DNA of 64,000 nucleotides from an uncultured Oscillospiraceae bacterium (GCA_964650465.1 CAZYTA010000003.1:32268-96267), one strand, 5' to 3'; positions 5,847 through 63,475 are shown, counted from the stretch's first letter. Notes: a model not told the origin generated them from the sequence alone. Translations and numbers: made by a program.

Positions 5847-6536
5847 TTATTCCGCCCATTGTCTGTCTATAATTTCACCAATTTCGTTTATTTGCTCTTG
5901 TGTTAAGGATACCTGTTTGTCACCGAATCTTGCATATCCCTCGGACATATTTACTCCGTATGTACCAAACTCCGTTTCAAATGTATATTCGGGCAGGCAT
6001 TTACAAATTTCGTCTCTGTAGTCAAGAAACCTGAGCAAATCGGTTATAGCTACAGAATCGCTTCCGGCAAAGGTTTTTTCCCAGCTTGTATCAATTCCTT
6101 TGTATTTTACGGTTGTAAGCGTATTTCCGCAGTATGCTGTTTCTTCATGCTCTATGACATTATCATTGCTTTCGGGAACATGACATTCCTTGAAGTAGCT
6201 TATCCCGAAGCGGTCAAGCTCTTCAATTCCTATCCGTCCGCTGTCAAGGGCATCTGCCACATTTTCACTTGTGCCGTCGGAGTAGTACACTGTCACATGC
6301 TGACTCTTGATACAACTGAATACATAGGTGTATTCACCGTCGCTGTAAAAGGGCTCCTCTGCCTGTGCACAGTCAATCTCTCCTGTTTTTGTGGCATCCA
6401 CTATGTCGGTTACAAATACAGCAACCTCCGAAGGCTCGCTCACCTCAACAGGATCAGCCACATAGCAGGTCACAACCTCCTCCTTGCACGAAGTAAAAAA
6501 CACAGTGCAAAGCAATATTAACAATATTCTTTTCAT
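5847..6536 (-). CDS. Hypothetical lipoprotein
   Basis: Signal peptide with lipobox (MKRILLILLCTVFFTSC). No recognisable catalytic motifs. Confidence 0.55.
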   Translation of the reverse strand: MKRILLILLCTVFFTSCKEEVVTCYVADPVEVSEPSEVAVFVTDIVDATKTGEIDCAQAEEPFYSDGEYTYVFSCIKSQHVTVYYSDGTSENVADALDSGRIGIEELDRFGISYFKECHVPESNDNVIEHEETAYCGNTLTTVKYKGIDTSWEKTFAGSDSVAITDLLRFLDYRDEICKCLPEYTFETEFGTYGVNMSEGYARFGDKQVSLTQEQINEIGEIIDRQWAE

Positions 6537-6558
6537 AGATTTACCTCCTTTAATCAGT

Positions 6559-6715
6559 TAAGCCGAAGAGAGTCGAACCCTTGTCGGTTTCATAGGGGAA
6601 TTTTCGCCCCTGCCGTCGTTACATTCCCTTGCATATATGTATTCCAAGCGACGAAAGGACATTTAGACCGAAAAGGGCTTTTCTCGGCGGCAATGATTCG
6701 ATTCTCTTCGGCTTA
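6559..6715 (-). repeat. TIR-bounded structured element, copy 1 (157 bp)
   Basis: Terminal inverted repeats TAAGCCGAAGAGAGTCGAAC … GATTCGATTCTCTTCGGCTTA. The body is shared with the copy at 37735-38010. It sits 11 nt upstream of the lipoprotein RBS on the minus strand. Confidence 0.6.
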
Positions 6716-6746
6716 GACGAAAGTAACGGGATTTTGTTCCACGATA

Positions 6747-6775
6747 TTGACAAAACGGTTTCAATGTGATATATT
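6747..6775 (+). promoter_or_regulatory. Promoter for THF riboswitch-folT-folC (TTGACA-17-TGnTATATT)
   Basis: -35 TTGACA at 6747 and an extended -10 TGATATATT ending at 6775. The predicted TSS is a few nt before the riboswitch. Confidence 0.55.
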
Positions 6776-6783
6776 TATCTCAT

Positions 6784-6877
6784 GCAGAGTAGAGTCAACT
6801 GCGTAAAGTGCTTATCGGACGGGGAGTTGCCGATTTGACGAAGGTTTTCCGCGGTAGTTTGGCTCGCATCCCGCTGC
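6784..6877 (+). promoter_or_regulatory. THF (tetrahydrofolate) riboswitch
   Basis: GCAGAGTAG…GCGTAAAGTG…GGACGGGGAGTTGCC…GCATCCCGCTGC matches the conserved THF aptamer (AGAGUAG / GCGUUAAGUG / GGAUGGGAUGU / GCAUCCGCUCC). It is located in the 5' leader of a folT-folC operon. Confidence 0.8.
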
Positions 6878-6937
6878 TACAATTAAAGAGACTCTTTTTG
6901 CCTCCTTAATGGTAGCTTACTTTAAGGAGGTATTTTT

Positions 6938-8818: not shown

Positions 8819-8930
8819 TCCTATGAAATTGCATTAAATCAACTTCGCCGTATTACTTTGCTTCGTTTTATACATTGGTAGCGATGGGCGAGCATTGCCA
8901 GCGGAGGCTCTCCGTTTTTTATAGCTTGAG
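8819..8930 (+). repeat. Terminator-adjacent repeat family A, full copy
   Basis: CCTATGAAATTGCATTAAATCAACTTCGCCG…GCGATGGGCGAGCATTGCCAGCGGAGGCTCTCCGTTTTTT. It is about 80% identical to the copy at 63115-63222 and to the reverse-complement copy at 53448-53552. Confidence 0.65.
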
Positions 8931-17069: not shown

Positions 17070-17190
17070 AGGTATACCTCTTTCGTTTCTTTCGTCCGGA
17101 CTGTAACCGTCGGTATCGGAATTTCACCGATTCAGCCAAAGCTCGCAGACTATAACTGCCGGTGAGGATTTGCACCTCGCCCTGAAACAA
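17070..17190 (-). promoter_or_regulatory. FMN riboswitch (RFN element)
   Basis: Minus strand reads AGGGCGAGGTGCAAATCCTCACCGGCAGT…AGTCTGCGAGC…GGTGAAATTCCGATACCGACGGTTACAGTCCGGACGAAAGAA. This matches RFN motifs (GGGTGAAATTCCC, ACCGGCGGT, AGCCCGCGAGC, CCGACAGT…AGTCTGGATG). A CCCTGAAAGGAGG sequester element is adjacent to the RBS. Confidence 0.8.
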
Positions 17191-17205
17191 AAATTTTACA
17201 ATACA

Positions 17206-25380: not shown

Positions 25381-25445
25381 GGTTTCACCCTGTACCCACT
25401 AAAAACCTTTTTGTAAAAAGGTTTTTAGAATTCCAAAAATTTTGA
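25381..25445. repeat. Left arm of ~65-bp inverted repeat flanking the CrtO-like gene
   Basis: CCCTGTACCCACTAAAAACCTTTTTGTAAAAAGGTTTTTAGAATTCCAAAAATTTTGAATATGA contains a perfect 12-bp palindrome. About 80% of it matches the reverse complement of 26191-26262. Confidence 0.55.
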
Positions 25446-25466
25446 ATATGAGTTTAATAAATAAAA

Positions 25467-26051
25467 ATGGATTTAAATATGAAGAATTCTAAATTAAGCG
25501 GTCCTGCTATATTCATGTACAGCTTTATCGCCCTGACCTTTATTTTGTCGGCGGTGTGCTTTGTGCTCTTTTACGGGGGATATACCCATAGCGGCATTGT
25601 TCTATGGTCGGGTGTTGTGTCCTTTATGATACTCTATCAGTTCGGACTCCGAATCCTCTTCGGCAAAATAACCGACCACATCAAATTCAACTACAGGCAT
25701 CCGTTTTTTACACGCAAAAGCTTTGAAGTAAAGCTCTACAAATTGCTTAAAGTAAGAAAATGGAAGGATAAGGTGCTTACCTTCAATCCCGATGCATACA
25801 ACTTTAAAGAGAGAACACTTCACGAGCTTGCCTCGACCATGGCTAAAAGTGAAACAGACCATTGGATAAATGTGGCAATCTCCATCGGCGGTATCTTCTT
25901 TTCACTTATATGGGGGCTCTTTCCCGTTTTCCTCATAACCGCCATTCTGGCTATTCTTTTCGATGCCCAGTTCATTATAGTCCAGCGCTATAACCGACCT
26001 GTTGTTCTGAGACTTATGGAGAGACGGGAAAAAGCAGTGGTAATAAAATAA
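25467..26051 (+). CDS. Glycosyl-4,4'-diaponeurosporenoate acyltransferase-like small membrane protein (CrtO family)
   Basis: 194 aa with 2+2 TM helices. The C-terminal FIIVQRYNRPVVLRL resembles the IAQRYNRPRL motif of CrtO-family proteins. Confidence 0.45.
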   Translation: MDLNMKNSKLSGPAIFMYSFIALTFILSAVCFVLFYGGYTHSGIVLWSGVVSFMILYQFGLRILFGKITDHIKFNYRHPFFTRKSFEVKLYKLLKVRKWKDKVLTFNPDAYNFKERTLHELASTMAKSETDHWINVAISIGGIFFSLIWGLFPVFLITAILAILFDAQFIIVQRYNRPVVLRLMERREKAVVIK

Positions 26052-26091
26052 TGCAGGGGATGTAGCAAAATTCGCAATATATACAAATTAC

Positions 26092-26176
26092 GGACCGTCG
26101 AGGACGCCGGTCCCTACAATTTATTTGTCATTTTAGACAAAATTTAGGCTGTAGCAATGTATTTTGCTACAGCCCC
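26092..26176 (+). repeat. Hairpin repeat B, copy 1
   Basis: CGGACCGTCGAGGACGCCGGTCCCTACAATTT followed by the hairpin GGCTGTAGCAA-tgtatt-TTGCTACAGCC. The first 32 nt are identical to 38909-38940. Confidence 0.6.
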
Positions 26177-26190
26177 TTTAATTTATAAAA

Positions 26191-26262
26191 AATCACATTC
26201 AAAGTTTTTAAAGTTCCAAGAAACATTTTACAAAAAGTTTCTTGGTGGGTGTTAGGGCAAAG
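26191..26262. repeat. Right arm of inverted repeat flanking the CrtO-like gene
   Basis: The reverse complement reads CCCTAACACCCACCAAGAAACTTTTTGTAAAATGTTTCTTGGAACTTTAAAAACTTTGAATGTGA, which aligns with 25381-25445. Confidence 0.55.
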
Positions 26263-35916: not shown

Positions 35917-37719
35917 TTATTTTACCTGTGTCCATATTATCAGGTCGGTGGCTTCTCTGTTTGCAAATGCGAAATATGGTATCAATCTTGCCCTGAAGGA
36001 TATGCGCTCGTTCGACTTCAGTGAATAGAGCTTTTCCGAAGGCTTTCTGCGCTCTGCACGCATATATATTACGGGCGCGGGGATCCCCTCCTCTGTAACA
36101 ATCTCGGTATTTTCGTTTTCAATTAGGGTGATATCGCGGAGATTTTCGCCGTTATCGATACCCTCCATGCAATAAACAATAGGACCGCGGGTAACAGCAT
36201 ATCTGCCCGAGTCATCCTGTACATTGGGGTTTGCCTCAATAAAGTGAATATTCATGGGCAGGTCAAGTGAGACCTTACCGCCATCGGTAAGATTGAATTT
36301 TGCAAAACCGTTTTCGGTCACACCGTCATACTCCGAACACCAATCGGGTATTCTTACATTAAGGGTTATCGGCTCGCCGTGATACTCAAATTCTATATGA
36401 CCGTCAAAGGGGTAGGCAGTTTTCTGAATGAGGGTGGCGTCCCTGCCTCCGACGGTAAGCTTTGTTTCGGAGTCGGCAAACTGATTGCACCAGACGGTAT
36501 CTCCTTCTACTGTGTACATATATCTCGGAATAGAGGACAGCATTCTTACAACATTCGGAGGACAGCAGGAGCAGCCGAACACCTTAACCCTTTCTGCAAC
36601 AGGCTGATATGCACCCTCGTGTCCGTATTTCTTCAGGTCAAGCTCAAGGGGATTGGTATAGAAAAATTCATCTCCCGAAAGGGACATTCCCGATATAAAG
36701 CCGTTGTAGTATATTCTCTCAATCACATCGCCGTAAACCGAGCTTTCCTCTGATTGCTGAAGCTCAGCGGCAAGCATTGCAAGGGCTATTGCGGCACAGG
36801 TCTCATTGTAGGACTCGCGGTTTGGGATATTGTAGCAGTAGGAAAAGGCTTCATGAAACCTCTGAGCGCCCACGCCGCCCGTTATGCTCATTTTTGTGTT
36901 GATGATATCAGCGAACAGTCTGTCGCAGGCTGATTTGAGTGTGTTGTCACCGTCGATGCGGGCAAGCATTGCCATAGCTGTATAAAGGTATCCCGCGCGG
37001 ACTGCGTGACCCTTGGCATGAGTCATCTTGCGTACAGGCATTTCGGACTGAAAGTATTCGGGACCAGCATAATCAAGCTTATCATTTTCACAGACGCCTC
37101 TTTTATCTATAAAAAATCGGGCAAGCTCAAGATGCTTTTCGTCTGCTGTATATTCGTAAAGCTTCAGCAATGCTATTTCTATTTCCTCGTGTCCAGGAGT
37201 GGTAAAGGAAGCACTTCCCTCCTCAACAAAAAGGCGGTAGATAAGCTCAACATTTTTCAGCATACAGTTGAGAAGCTTATCCTTGCCCGTTGCCTTATGA
37301 TATGCGATAGCCGCTTCAATAAGATGACCTGTACAGTAAAGCTCATGCATATTTCTGTCTGTAAATATTTTTGAGGGCTCGAGGGTCAGATAGTAGGAGT
37401 TGAAATAGCCGTCTGCCCGTTGATTTTTTTCGATTTCGTCAACGGTTTTATCCACCAGGGCTTCAAGCTCTGGTTCGCGGTGTACCTCTGTGAGATAAGC
37501 CACGCCCTCTATCCATTTTGCTACATCGGAGTCCCAGAAATGATGGGGCTTCTTCACCTCGCCGTCTCTTTCCCTCCACTGACATTTGAAGGCATCAAAC
37601 CGTCCCGTTTCAAAAAATCTGTCATACACGGCACGAACGGTAACATTTCTTACAAGGTCGGTATAATATTTCCAAAATCCGTCTTTTATGGTTGTGTTTG
37701 CAAAATAAAGGTTTTTCAT
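35917..37719 (-). CDS. Glycoside hydrolase family 127 (beta-L-arabinofuranosidase, DUF1680)
   Basis: 601 aa with GH127-type motifs (HHFWDSDVAKWIEG, cysteine-rich C-terminal zinc site). Start set at MKNLYF, preceded by GGAGGAAACA. The 90-codon upstream extension in the ORF track runs through a repeat element. Confidence 0.75.
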   Translation of the reverse strand: MKNLYFANTTIKDGFWKYYTDLVRNVTVRAVYDRFFETGRFDAFKCQWRERDGEVKKPHHFWDSDVAKWIEGVAYLTEVHREPELEALVDKTVDEIEKNQRADGYFNSYYLTLEPSKIFTDRNMHELYCTGHLIEAAIAYHKATGKDKLLNCMLKNVELIYRLFVEEGSASFTTPGHEEIEIALLKLYEYTADEKHLELARFFIDKRGVCENDKLDYAGPEYFQSEMPVRKMTHAKGHAVRAGYLYTAMAMLARIDGDNTLKSACDRLFADIINTKMSITGGVGAQRFHEAFSYCYNIPNRESYNETCAAIALAMLAAELQQSEESSVYGDVIERIYYNGFISGMSLSGDEFFYTNPLELDLKKYGHEGAYQPVAERVKVFGCSCCPPNVVRMLSSIPRYMYTVEGDTVWCNQFADSETKLTVGGRDATLIQKTAYPFDGHIEFEYHGEPITLNVRIPDWCSEYDGVTENGFAKFNLTDGGKVSLDLPMNIHFIEANPNVQDDSGRYAVTRGPIVYCMEGIDNGENLRDITLIENENTEIVTEEGIPAPVIYMRAERRKPSEKLYSLKSNERISFRARLIPYFAFANREATDLIIWTQVK

Positions 37720-37734
37720 TGTTTCCTCCGTTAT

Positions 37735-38010
37735 AGCCGAAGAGAGTCGAACCCTTGTCGGTTTCAGAGGGGAATTTTCGCCCCTGCCATCGTTACATTC
37801 CCTTGTAATACGGCAGTATGACTGCGGGAAATGTGCCTTGCCAGGAACAAAAATTTCCGTCTGAAACTTCCCGAGAACCGAGAAAAGATGATTTTCGAGG
37901 ATAAATTTTCTTGAGGAATGCAGGAATACTATATGTATTCTAAGGGACGAAAGGAAATTTAGACAGAAAAGGGCTTTTCTCGGCGGCAATGGTTCGATTC
38001 CCTTCGGCTA
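37735..38010 (-). repeat. TIR-bounded structured element, copy 2 (276 bp)
   Basis: TIRs TAGCCGAAGAGAGTCGAAC … GGTTCGATTCCCTTCGGCTA. Both ends match copy 1 at about 85%. It carries an internal insertion of about 120 nt. It ends 5 nt from the GH127 RBS (minus strand) and abuts the -35 box of the divergent AraC promoter. Confidence 0.6.
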
Positions 38011-38039
38011 TTGACATTAATTTCGCGTTATGCTATTAT
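38011..38039 (+). promoter_or_regulatory. Promoter TTGACA-17-TATTAT for the AraC gene
   Basis: The hexamers begin immediately after the right TIR of the repeat element. Confidence 0.45.
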
Positions 38040-38105
38040 CAGTATAGCAAAACGGCGATTTGTAAGCAACCTAAAAAATCGTATAATAGGAGTTAAAATC
38101 CGACT

Positions 38106-38867: not shown

Positions 38868-38908
38868 AAATGAGACTGTAACATAATTCAAAAAAATGCA
38901 CAAGACGC

Positions 38909-39000
38909 GGACCGTCGAGGACGCCGGTCCCTACAATTTTTCACCGCTTTTGCACAAAAACAGGTGTGTAGCAAGTAATTTTGCTACACACCTATTATAT
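38909..39000 (+). repeat. Hairpin repeat B, copy 2
   Basis: GCGGACCGTCGAGGACGCCGGTCCCTACAATTT followed by GGTGTGTAGCAA-gtaatt-TTGCTACACACC. Confidence 0.6.
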
Positions 39001-51392: not shown

Positions 51393-51451
51393 ATAACCCT
51401 ATAACAAAGCGGTCAGTGACCGCTGACAATGCCCGCCTATCGTAACCTATG

Positions 51452-51500
51452 GATGTACCCGAACAAGGTAAACGGCGAGGTTTGTTTAATACAGTTTCCT
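51452..51500 (-). repeat. Repeat family A, partial 5' module
   Basis: The minus strand reads TATTAGGAAACTGTATTAAACAAACCTCGCCGTTT. It directly follows the terminator hairpin at 51507-51530. Confidence 0.45.
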
Positions 51501-51506
51501 AATAGA

Positions 51507-51530
51507 GAATAAATCAGGCAAGGCGCAACT
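51507..51530 (-). terminator. Terminator of the capAB operon
   Basis: GGCAGGGCGCAG-ttg-CGCCTTGCC followed by TGATTTATTCT (minus strand). Confidence 0.55.
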
Positions 51531-53278: not shown

Positions 53279-53446
53279 ATGAAAAACACAGTGAAAATCA
53301 TGGAAGGACTTGCAATAGGAATGATTATAGGAGGAACAGCAGGCGCATTCATTGCCTCCAAGATAAAAAACTGCAGTAACTCCGGAAAACGTTTTACTCA
53401 CGCTATAAAATCCGCCTGCGGCTTTATCGAAGATATCTGCGGCTAA
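53279..53446 (+). CDS. Small (55-aa) membrane protein, unannotated ORF
   Basis: Strong RBS GAGAGGAGATAACAT-ATG. One TM helix (GLAIGMIIGGTAGAFIA) and three Cys. It falls below the 60-aa cutoff of the ORF track. Confidence 0.35.
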   Translation: MKNTVKIMEGLAIGMIIGGTAGAFIASKIKNCSNSGKRFTHAIKSACGFIEDICG

Positions 53447-53447
53447 G

Positions 53448-53590
53448 CGGAGAGCCTCCGCGGGCAATTCTCGCCTATCTTAACAATATATCTGCACCCA
53501 AACACAGCACAACGGCGAGGTTGATTTAATGCAATTTCCTATGATATAAAAAAGCAGAGAGCCTCCGCAGGAAATTTTTGCCTATCGTTC
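53448..53590 (-). repeat. Repeat family A: one full copy plus a 3' fragment of a second, minus orientation
   Basis: The reverse complement reads …GATAGGCAAAAATTTCCTGCGGAGGCTCTCTGCTTTTTTATATCATAGGAAATTGCATTAAATCAACCTCGCCGTT…GATAGGCGAGAATTGCCCGCGGAGGCTCTCCGC. Confidence 0.6.
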
Positions 53591-55070: not shown

Positions 55071-55124
55071 CTTTTGTCTATTAGACGGTGGGAATACTTT
55101 TTTGTTCCGCATATTTTGCAAAAA

Positions 55125-55300
55125 TGTCGAGGTTGTTTTAATACAATTTCCTATGATATAAAAAAGTCGCCTTCGGCAACTGATGTTCGCTAACGCTCAC
55201 AATTTCAGAGGTAGACTTTGTTTGTTACAAGCAATTGCGATGCAATTTCCTATGTAATAAAAAATCACTCCGCATTTCTGCGGAGTGAAGTTTTGTTTAC
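55125..55300 (-). repeat. Two partial copies of repeat family A, each after a hairpin
   Basis: The minus strand reads CACTCCGCAGAAATGCGGAGTG-ATTTTTTATTACATAGGAAATTGCATCGC and GTTGCCGAAGGCGAC-TTTTTTATATCATAGGAAATTGTATTAAAACAACC. Confidence 0.5.
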
Positions 55301-63114: not shown

Positions 63115-63222
63115 TGCTATGAAATCGCATTAAAACCAACCTCGCCGTTTTGCTTTGCCCGGAGGTATATATTTGGTTGCGATAGGCGAGCATTGCCGAC
63201 GGAGGCTCTCTGCTTTTTTTAC
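63115..63222 (+). repeat. Repeat family A, full copy
   Basis: GCTATGAAATCGCATTAAAACCAACCTCGCCG…GCGATAGGCGAGCATTGCCGACGGAGGCTCTCTGCTTTTTTT. Confidence 0.6.
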
Positions 63223-63475
63223 ATTGTAGCACACATTCGCCGAAAAGTAAACAAAAAAAGTTGCTGTCGCAAATTCGTTATAACTACACTTCGTTACGTT
63301 GTGATATGATATAAATTTCATTCTCGTCCCGAAGGGACATATCGCATTACTCGGTAATATATCGCACCGAAGGTATATCGCAAATTCCATTAGGAATTTA
63401 TATCAATTATCGATATAAAAACGACTCGTCTAAACAAGTCGTTTTTTCAGGCTGTTACGGACCATTATGGTACCG

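Follow-up and report, generated by a model that had tools for sequence, protein, structure and literature searches.

In the flgB and cwpV switches of Clostridioides difficile, imperfect inverted repeats of ~20 bp flank ~150-200 bp in the 5′ leader, with the flagellar switch measuring 154 bp and having 21-bp repeats. Inverted repeats also bound the MITEs, which are non-coding, non-autonomous DNA transposons. Prokaryotic MITEs are 50-800 bp long, carry terminal repeats of at least 10-15 bp, are flanked by target-site duplications of 2-10 bp and encode no transposase (PMC11602168; PMC2229807); they are present in 56.5% of genomes, and ~90% of them are intergenic (PMC11602168). The Correia (NEMIS) elements of Neisseria often adjoin promoters and are co-transcribed as long hairpins that RNase III is able to cleave (PMC2229807). 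IS630-Spn1 mobilises RUP, a MITE of Streptococcus pneumoniae that has stop codons in all frames and in which high identity between copies suggests recent mobility, while the ERIC (IRU) sequences of enterobacteria occur in size variants produced by internal insertions and are reported to affect the stability of flanking mRNA (PMC2229807).

We analysed a 64-kb stretch of DNA (the window) from an uncultured Oscillospiraceae/Ruminococcaceae lineage, in which an earlier note had described two related elements upstream of minus-strand genes and had weighed a cis-regulatory RNA against a MITE. Alignment confirmed both elements at their places, as members of one family lying 31 kb apart within the window (Table 1). 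As set out below, the element is very probably a MITE that has inserted upstream of two unrelated genes, and the family is an undescribed, apparently low-copy one with two recent insertions in 5′ leaders.

Table 1. Positions in the window of the two copies, their parts and the adjoining genes and promoter. SD, Shine-Dalgarno sequence; TSD, target-site duplication; TIR, terminal inverted repeat.
Feature	Position	Strand	Length or sequence	Basis or remark
Copy 1, short form of the probable MITE, core	6561..6713	(-)	153 bp, AGCCG...CGGCT	Alignment with copy 2
Copy 2, long form of the probable MITE, core	37735..38009	(-)	275 bp	Alignment with copy 1
Copy 1, SD-proximal TSD	6559..6560		TA	Filled site against empty site L043
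Copy 1, promoter-proximal TSD	6714..6715		TA	Filled site against empty site L043
Copy 2, SD-proximal TSD	37733..37734		AT	Empty sites L045, L046
Copy 2, distal TSD	38010..38011		AT	Its T opens the AraC-gene -35 box TTGACA
Copy 1, TIR, SD-proximal arm	6561..6586			
Copy 1, TIR, distal arm	6688..6713			
Copy 2, TIR, SD-proximal arm	37735..37760			
Copy 2, TIR, distal arm	37984..38009			
Small hairpin, copy 1	6595..6610		GGGG-AATTTTCG-CCCC	Sequence reading and folds of both strands
Small hairpin, copy 2	37769..37784		GGGG-AATTTTCG-CCCC	Sequence reading and folds
Internal segment of the long form only	37806..37929		124 nt	Copy 2
Gene 3′ of copy 1, putative lipoprotein	5847..6536	(-)	229 aa	SD 6544-6549
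Gene 3′ of copy 2, GH127 beta-L-arabinofuranosidase-like	35917..37719	(-)	600 aa	SD 37725-37729
Inferred GH127 promoter	38041..38069	(-)	TTGCTT, 17-nt spacer, TGC-TATACT extended -10	

The bodies of the two copies are more alike than the ~85% identity first given, matching at 69 of 71 and 74 of 80 positions (143/151, 95%). The boundaries given before required slight adjustment, with 6559-6715 comprising the core of copy 1 plus both 2-bp duplications and 37735-38010 comprising the core of copy 2 plus one base of its right duplication. The terminal inverted repeats were found to be imperfect, as described, with 28-nt arms (6559-6586/6688-6715 and 37733-37760/37984-38011) that are 86% complementary; this length counts the target-site duplications, and 26 nt of each arm lie within the core. 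The terminal helix as originally read is two bases longer because each duplication, TA or AT, is its own reverse complement. Four occurrences of the terminal 19-mer were counted in the window, compared with zero expected, and these are the four repeat arms only. An extra internal insertion in copy 2, estimated at ~120 nt, measured 124 nt, and the small hairpin was found in both copies. The T-loop-like motif GGTTCGA had been placed at both ends of the elements, which is the case for copy 2, whereas copy 1 carries GGTTCGA at one end and GATTCGA at the other. Since independent Logan assemblies from two SRA runs (L033, L034, L039, L040) carry the identical sequences, we could rule out that the copies are an assembly artefact.

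To establish whether the two loci are ancestral or acquired is to compare them with their orthologs. Apart from two Logan samples, the proteins of the window are singletons when clustered at 90% identity, and the closest GH127 homologs are 76-80% identical. The divergent AraC/GH127 gene order was kept in all four relative contigs (L041, L042, L045, and L046), one of which also retains the downstream 1537-aa SLH protein. The AraC/GH127 intergenic region spans 386 nt in the window compared with 112, 98, 112, and 111 nt, respectively, in these contigs; copy 2 was not present at this site in any of the four, and the -10 block and SD are conserved there. L045 and L046 contain the exact empty site ATGTCAATAACGGAGGAA, which equals the window flanks joined by one AT, while the filled site in the window reads ATGTCA-AT-[AGCCG...CGGCT]-AT-AACGGAGGAA.

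For copy 1, the comparison was made with a sister genome (L043) whose FolT is 87% identical and in which the order AsnC, lipoprotein, THF riboswitch, folT, folC is kept. The lipoprotein ortholog of this genome (225 aa) has no element upstream, and the lipoprotein/folT intergenic region measures 247 nt, compared with 401 nt in the window. At the insertion site, L043 reads CTTTCGTC-TA-AGTGAC... and the window reads CTTTCGTC-TA-[AGCCG...CGGCT]-TA-ACTGAT..., so that joining the window flanks by a single TA yields CTTTCGTCTAACTGATTAAAGGAGG, equal in length to the empty site of L043 (CTTTCGTCTAAGTGACAAAAGGAGG). Comparing filled with empty sites identified 2-bp target-site duplications of TA for copy 1 and AT for copy 2. 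Because the orthologous sites are empty and 2-bp duplications flank the cores, both copies are insertions and not conserved leaders.

The duplications also bear on the type of enzyme involved. IS630/Tc1-type elements duplicate TA only, and a MITE derived from IS630/Tc1-mariner was rejected on this strict TA insertion: copy 2 duplicated AT, and both alignment and direct reading indicated that a TA model for this copy would need two extra indels. IS200/IS605-type (PATE) and serine-recombinase models were rejected by reasoning, because the 2-bp flanks are not the same in the two copies and agree with the empty sites, as duplication by a staggered cut predicts. Some IS30 and IS5-subgroup elements generate duplications of 2-3 bp. 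Since the duplications of the two copies differ (TA, AT), the transposase family is not assignable.

The same comparisons weigh on a second reading, in which the element is an inverton, that is, a segment between inverted repeats in a leader that a recombinase flips, switching expression ON or OFF as at C. difficile flgB and cwpV. The layout would suit such a switch, as imperfect inverted repeats of ~20-26 bp flank 100-220 bp between promoter and SD, and the repeat arms hold T-arm-like palindromes that may be of the kind tyrosine recombinases use for core sites. However, the whole unit including its repeats is missing at the orthologous sites and is surrounded by 2-bp duplications, which is the signature of transposition and not of a resident switch, and the interiors at the two loci are homologous. 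Moreover, no promoter-like or terminator-like site was found within either copy, no recombinase was found among the ten large window ORFs checked, and a single orientation was observed in the window and in two independent Logan assemblies. We consider an inverton very unlikely to be the right description.

The genes downstream of the two copies are unrelated to each other. The 229-aa protein encoded next to copy 1 has no recorded Pfam hit, and its signal peptide and lipobox (FTSC) were read by eye; homologs of the GH127 protein have Pfam domains PF07944, PF20736, and PF20737. Judging from the transcription start predicted by a conserved extended -10 promoter, copy 2 appears to sit inside the GH127 5′ leader; the -10 block of this promoter (TTTTGCTATACTGATAATAGCATAAC) is conserved in L041 and L045 and has one change in L046. 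In a mechanical ORF list, the GH127 frame (35917-37989, minus strand) starts from a TTG at 37989 and, by running through copy 2, gains 90 upstream codons, so a gene caller could mis-annotate the GH127 start, although the ATG at 37719 with its SD agrees with all homologs. On the side away from these genes, both elements had been said to abut the -35 box of a divergent promoter. This is correct for copy 2, where the TTGACA at 38011-38016 overlaps the duplication, but not for copy 1, where the nearest TTGACA (6747-6752) lies 31 nt past the duplication.

A THF riboswitch (6783-6878, plus strand, 73.7 bits) adjoins copy 1 and lies upstream of folT-folC; both it and its promoter have near-identical counterparts in the sister genome L043. 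An FMN riboswitch is located at 17080-17193 on the minus strand (107.3 bits).

If the element were a cis-regulatory leader RNA (a riboswitch, protein-binding or processing element), it would act from the minus strand, with its closing helix near the SD. The two copies are oriented alike within 5′ leaders, and the distance from core to SD is 11 nt for copy 1 and 5 nt for copy 2, in agreement with the 5-11 nt previously reported. In addition, they have the small hairpin in common, and their predicted folds are strong (z-scores of -4.1 and -7.8). Nevertheless, this reading is contradicted by the orthologous leaders of all relatives examined, which lack the element but keep the promoter, the SD and the gene, as well as by the target-site duplications around the element and by its association with two unrelated genes. 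At gathering thresholds, an Rfam scan of the whole window returned only the THF and FMN riboswitches, and a scan of the region 6480-6790 at E-values up to 10 returned only noise. The earlier note, which could name no family for the element, had proposed such a scan, and the element indeed went unmatched.

The predicted folds were likewise symmetric between strands. On the plus strand, which is not the strand transcribed with the downstream genes, fold energies were -61.1 kcal/mol for copy 1 and -117.2 kcal/mol for copy 2, compared with -56.9 and -104.1 kcal/mol, respectively, on the minus strand, and both strands folded far better than shuffled sequences. The closing helix comprises 24 Watson-Crick pairs, 3 G-U pairs, and 3 mismatches on the plus strand and 24 Watson-Crick pairs, 1 G-U pair, and 5 mismatches on the minus strand. 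Because the two strands fold equally well, with the non-transcribed strand slightly ahead, the predicted "structure" is, in these models, the palindromy of the DNA. Strand-specific selection on an RNA was ruled out given that the plus strand pairs better; with 95% identity, the two copies are too alike for covariation analysis.

We also compared the leaders with and without the element by partition-function folding. For the SD, the mean unpaired probability was 0.21 in the presence of the element and 0.08 in its absence for copy 1, and 0.15 and 0.23, respectively, for copy 2; the element folds as a self-contained domain in the predicted leaders. Occlusion of the SD by the element was thus ruled out, and the unchanged predicted accessibility of the SD further opposes a regulatory leader. 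Taken together, the leader-RNA reading that had been put forward fails on the empty leaders of relatives, the unrelated genes, the Rfam scans, and the strand-symmetric folds; the empty sites largely refute it by sequence comparison, and we leave it only a very small chance of being right.

In contrast, the MITE reading, which the earlier note had set beside it, is upheld by the empty orthologous loci, the 2-bp duplications, the terminal inverted repeats, and the absence of coding capacity. The element combines 28-nt arms and 2-bp duplications checked against empty sites with lengths of 153 and 275 bp, and six-frame translation revealed stops and no conserved ORF, with no frame common to both copies.

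The relationship between the two forms was examined by aligning the 124-nt insert with the remainder of the element. The insert consists of inverted, diverged copies of both flanking body halves: the reverse complement of the left half aligns with its positions 21-62 and that of the right half with its positions 72-107, where one 10-mer (CCGAGAAAAG) matches perfectly. The local alignment scores were 19 (left) and 15 (right), compared with shuffle means of 7.9 and 7.8, and 0 of 500 shuffles reached either score. Local alignment detected no similarity of the insert to the body halves in direct orientation. Being made of inverted copies of the body of the element, the insert is not of foreign origin. 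The long form is accordingly laid out as terminal repeat, B, B′, A′, A, terminal repeat, which in the folding models gives two hairpin modules under a terminal helix, and the short form is without B′ and A′. By analogy with the 155- and 107-bp Correia forms (PMC2229807), the short form would most simply be an internal deletion derivative of the long form, a direction that we infer.

We searched for further members of the family at several scales. No additional copy was found in the 64-kb window, and none was found in ~100 kb of DNA from related genomes. Distant BLASTN against plasmid and phage collections gave no match, and three internal or junction patterns searched in viral contigs gave nothing or chance matches. 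The exact hairpin 19-mer CAGGGGCGAAAATTCCCCT had 5 matches in a metagenome collection, all of them chance matches of 19-25 nt, and the exact pattern AAACCGACAAGGGTTCGAC had 4 matches in a genome collection, none extending beyond the pattern by more than one base; such exact-pattern scans detect near-identical members, and diverged relatives would escape them. The two Clostridia matches to AAACCGACAAGGGTTCGAC that were inspected fall in coding sequence, for example in the ...TDKGSTF motif of a histidine kinase. When six-frame translations of both copies were used as protein queries for spurious ORFs over other copies, no matches were obtained. Ten large window ORFs that were checked include no transposase, all of them being housekeeping or carbohydrate genes. 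The family accordingly seems to be rare and restricted to one lineage.

With the k=31 used in Logan assemblies, a 31-mer shared between repeats interrupts a contig. The ends of L033 and L034 coincide exactly with the block of 31-mers common to both copies. L040 and L039, on the other hand, begin at 6604 and 37791, and no 31-mer is shared by the known copies at these points. Because these breakpoints lie outside the 31-mers common to the known copies, they suggest that further short-form and long-form copies, or strain variants, may exist in the Logan samples.

Other repeats were observed between genes of the window. A second intergenic repeat, at 26076-26180 and 38893-38997, is 72% identical over 105 nt and has a shared hairpin GGACCGTCGAGGACGCCGGTCC, followed by CTACAATTT and then by a TGTAGCAA...TTGCTACA hairpin; one copy lies just downstream of the AraC gene that adjoins copy 2, and L039 ends inside the repeat at 38893-38997, as expected of a multi-copy repeat. 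Two short intergenic repeat families occur at 8875-8928, 63173-63226, 51407-51441, 53445-53479, and 53552-53586, and at 1913-1956, 51471-51514, 53511-53554, and 55123-55166. One of the two families has a GGAGGCTCTCCG hairpin and is found in both orientations, and the other reads AACGGCGAGGTT..AATTTCCTAT; they may be terminator-associated or REP-like. Finally, 62-nt inverted repeats at 25394-25455 and 26189-26250, which are 79% complementary, bracket a 733-bp segment with one small, membrane-protein-like ORF (~25468-26052). Each arm contains a terminator-like hairpin, and the segment might be another repeat-bounded cassette or merely lie between paired terminators.

The ends of the element resemble the 3′ ends of tRNA and tmRNA genes. 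The terminal 19-mer GGTTCGAYTCYCTTCGGCT matched 19 viral-contig loci, and the majority of these matches coincide exactly with the 3′ end of a tRNA-Ala or tmRNA gene. The SD-proximal end, taken on the minus strand, is AAGGG-TTCGACT-CTCTT-CGGCT, corresponding to a complete T arm plus the 3′ acceptor strand, and the distal end reads alike on the plus strand. The resemblance is confined to the terminal ~25 nt. A tmRNA in L004 matches at 27 of 28 bases at its 3′ end, with the remainder being unrelated, and derivation of the whole element from a tmRNA was ruled out because this similarity ends at the 3′-terminal ~27 nt.

These ends raise the question of whether the element is left over from tRNA or tmRNA genes, or from att sites of integrative elements that target tRNA/ssrA 3′ ends. 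Apart from the exact 19-mer matches, this reading draws on a terminal-repeat match in a tRNA-like, att-type site of one viral contig (L018, IMGVR_UViG_3300020045_002642) beside an ORF whose sequence reads as integrase-like. However, ARAGORN detected no tRNA or tmRNA gene in the whole window, and the Rfam models for tRNA (RF00005) and tmRNA (RF00023) gave no match to the element at E-values up to 10. Furthermore, the ends of the element are inverted, whereas attL and attR are direct repeats; no integrase or island lies between or beside the ends; the similarity is limited to ~25 nt; and the insertion sites are not tRNA genes. We therefore regard a tRNA or att remnant as extremely unlikely.

In L018, positions 2590-2740 hold a cluster of tRNA/tmRNA-like T-arm segments, including TAAGCCGAAGGGAATCGAACCCTTG, next to the putative integrase-like ORF. 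ARAGORN and Rfam call nothing there; the segment resembles an att region assembled from the 3′ ends of tRNAs.

The tRNA-like ends are regarded as a real property of the terminal repeats that leaves the classification as a MITE unaffected. They could have been captured from a host tRNA/ssrA end, have converged on the substrate of a recombinase or RNase, or have arisen by chance. We give a small chance to the possibility that the termini are functional and not accidental, in which case each end would present an outward-facing T arm and 3′ acceptor strand, and the two ends would pair like an acceptor stem. At the RNA level, RNase P or RNase Z might recognise a tRNA-like minihelix formed by the leader ends, in which case the element would act as a portable module for processing, giving the mRNA a new 5′ end a few nt before the SD. 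The T-arm fold would face competition from the 19-bp terminal helix, which is more stable. At the DNA level, the T-arm palindromes might serve as core sites for a tyrosine recombinase that targets tRNA/ssrA and moves or flips the element, which would make it a MITE mobilised by an integrase in place of a DDE transposase.

Returning to the MITE reading, an ordinary kind of selfish element accounts for the locus, with the tRNA-like termini as its one curious feature. A transposase encoded elsewhere would bind the ~26-bp terminal inverted repeats and mobilise the element in trans, making cuts staggered by 2 nt at an A/T dinucleotide of the target, and gap repair would then produce the 2-bp duplication. 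After its split from the nearest sequenced relatives, the lineage of the window acquired at least two insertions, both of them in leaders that are short and AT-rich, at a point between the promoter and the SD. Most probably, each copy is transcribed together with the gene downstream of it and forms a large hairpin domain that is self-contained. Since SD accessibility is predicted to be unaltered by this domain, the insertions probably have a neutral or mildly modulatory effect. If Correia and ERIC elements are a guide, RNase III might act on the long helix and mRNA stability might change (PMC2229807).

Several observations count against a MITE. Two copies are documented, whereas MITE families normally have more; an autonomous insertion sequence with matching ends was not found in the window or in viral contigs; and the terminal repeats match tRNA/tmRNA 3′ ends, which a plain MITE model does not explain. 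Because the collection scans gave chance matches and the protein search gave none, mobility is deduced from two events only. Both insertions share the same orientation and closeness to the SD, but with only two insertions and a 50% chance expectation for matching orientation, a preference for promoter-proximal sites is not established.

For annotation, these results mean that the blocks of 153 and 275 bp should be labelled as insertions of a mobile element and not as riboswitch candidates or N-terminal extensions. Close relatives also offer a natural experiment in which the same promoters and ribosome-binding sites occur with and without a large leader hairpin, which would permit a direct test of the effect of a MITE on expression in gut Oscillospiraceae. 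To our knowledge, MITEs have barely been described in these bacteria. The tRNA-like terminal repeats could point to the origin of the family or to the enzyme that mobilises it.

Among described elements, the Correia elements are like the present one in being small and non-coding, in having terminal inverted repeats and an A/T dinucleotide duplication, and in showing filled and empty sites among relatives (PMC2229807). They also exist in forms of 107 and 155 bp that differ by an internal segment, comparable to the short and long forms described here (PMC2229807). However, there is no sequence similarity between the two, and the extra segment of our element is an inverted copy of its own body. 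Correia elements number hundreds of copies and have a TA-specific duplication, an IHF site, and outward promoters, in contrast with the two known copies, the TA and AT duplications, and the lack of any internal promoter-like site found here. RUP is closer in host, being from a Firmicutes species, and is similar in size and in duplicating a dinucleotide (PMC2229807), but its terminal repeats are common to a known insertion sequence and its insertion is strictly at TA, whereas copy 2 duplicated AT. Like the element, ERIC sequences are imperfect palindromes (~127 bp) located in transcribed intergenic regions (PMC2229807). ERIC sequences, however, are old and widespread, are conserved between genera and show little evidence of moving at present, whereas the element appears confined to one lineage and has clean empty sites in congeners. 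Finally, the C. difficile switches are resident, locus-specific, and flipped by a recombinase, in contrast with the element described here, which is an insertion flanked by target-site duplications with a homologous copy elsewhere.
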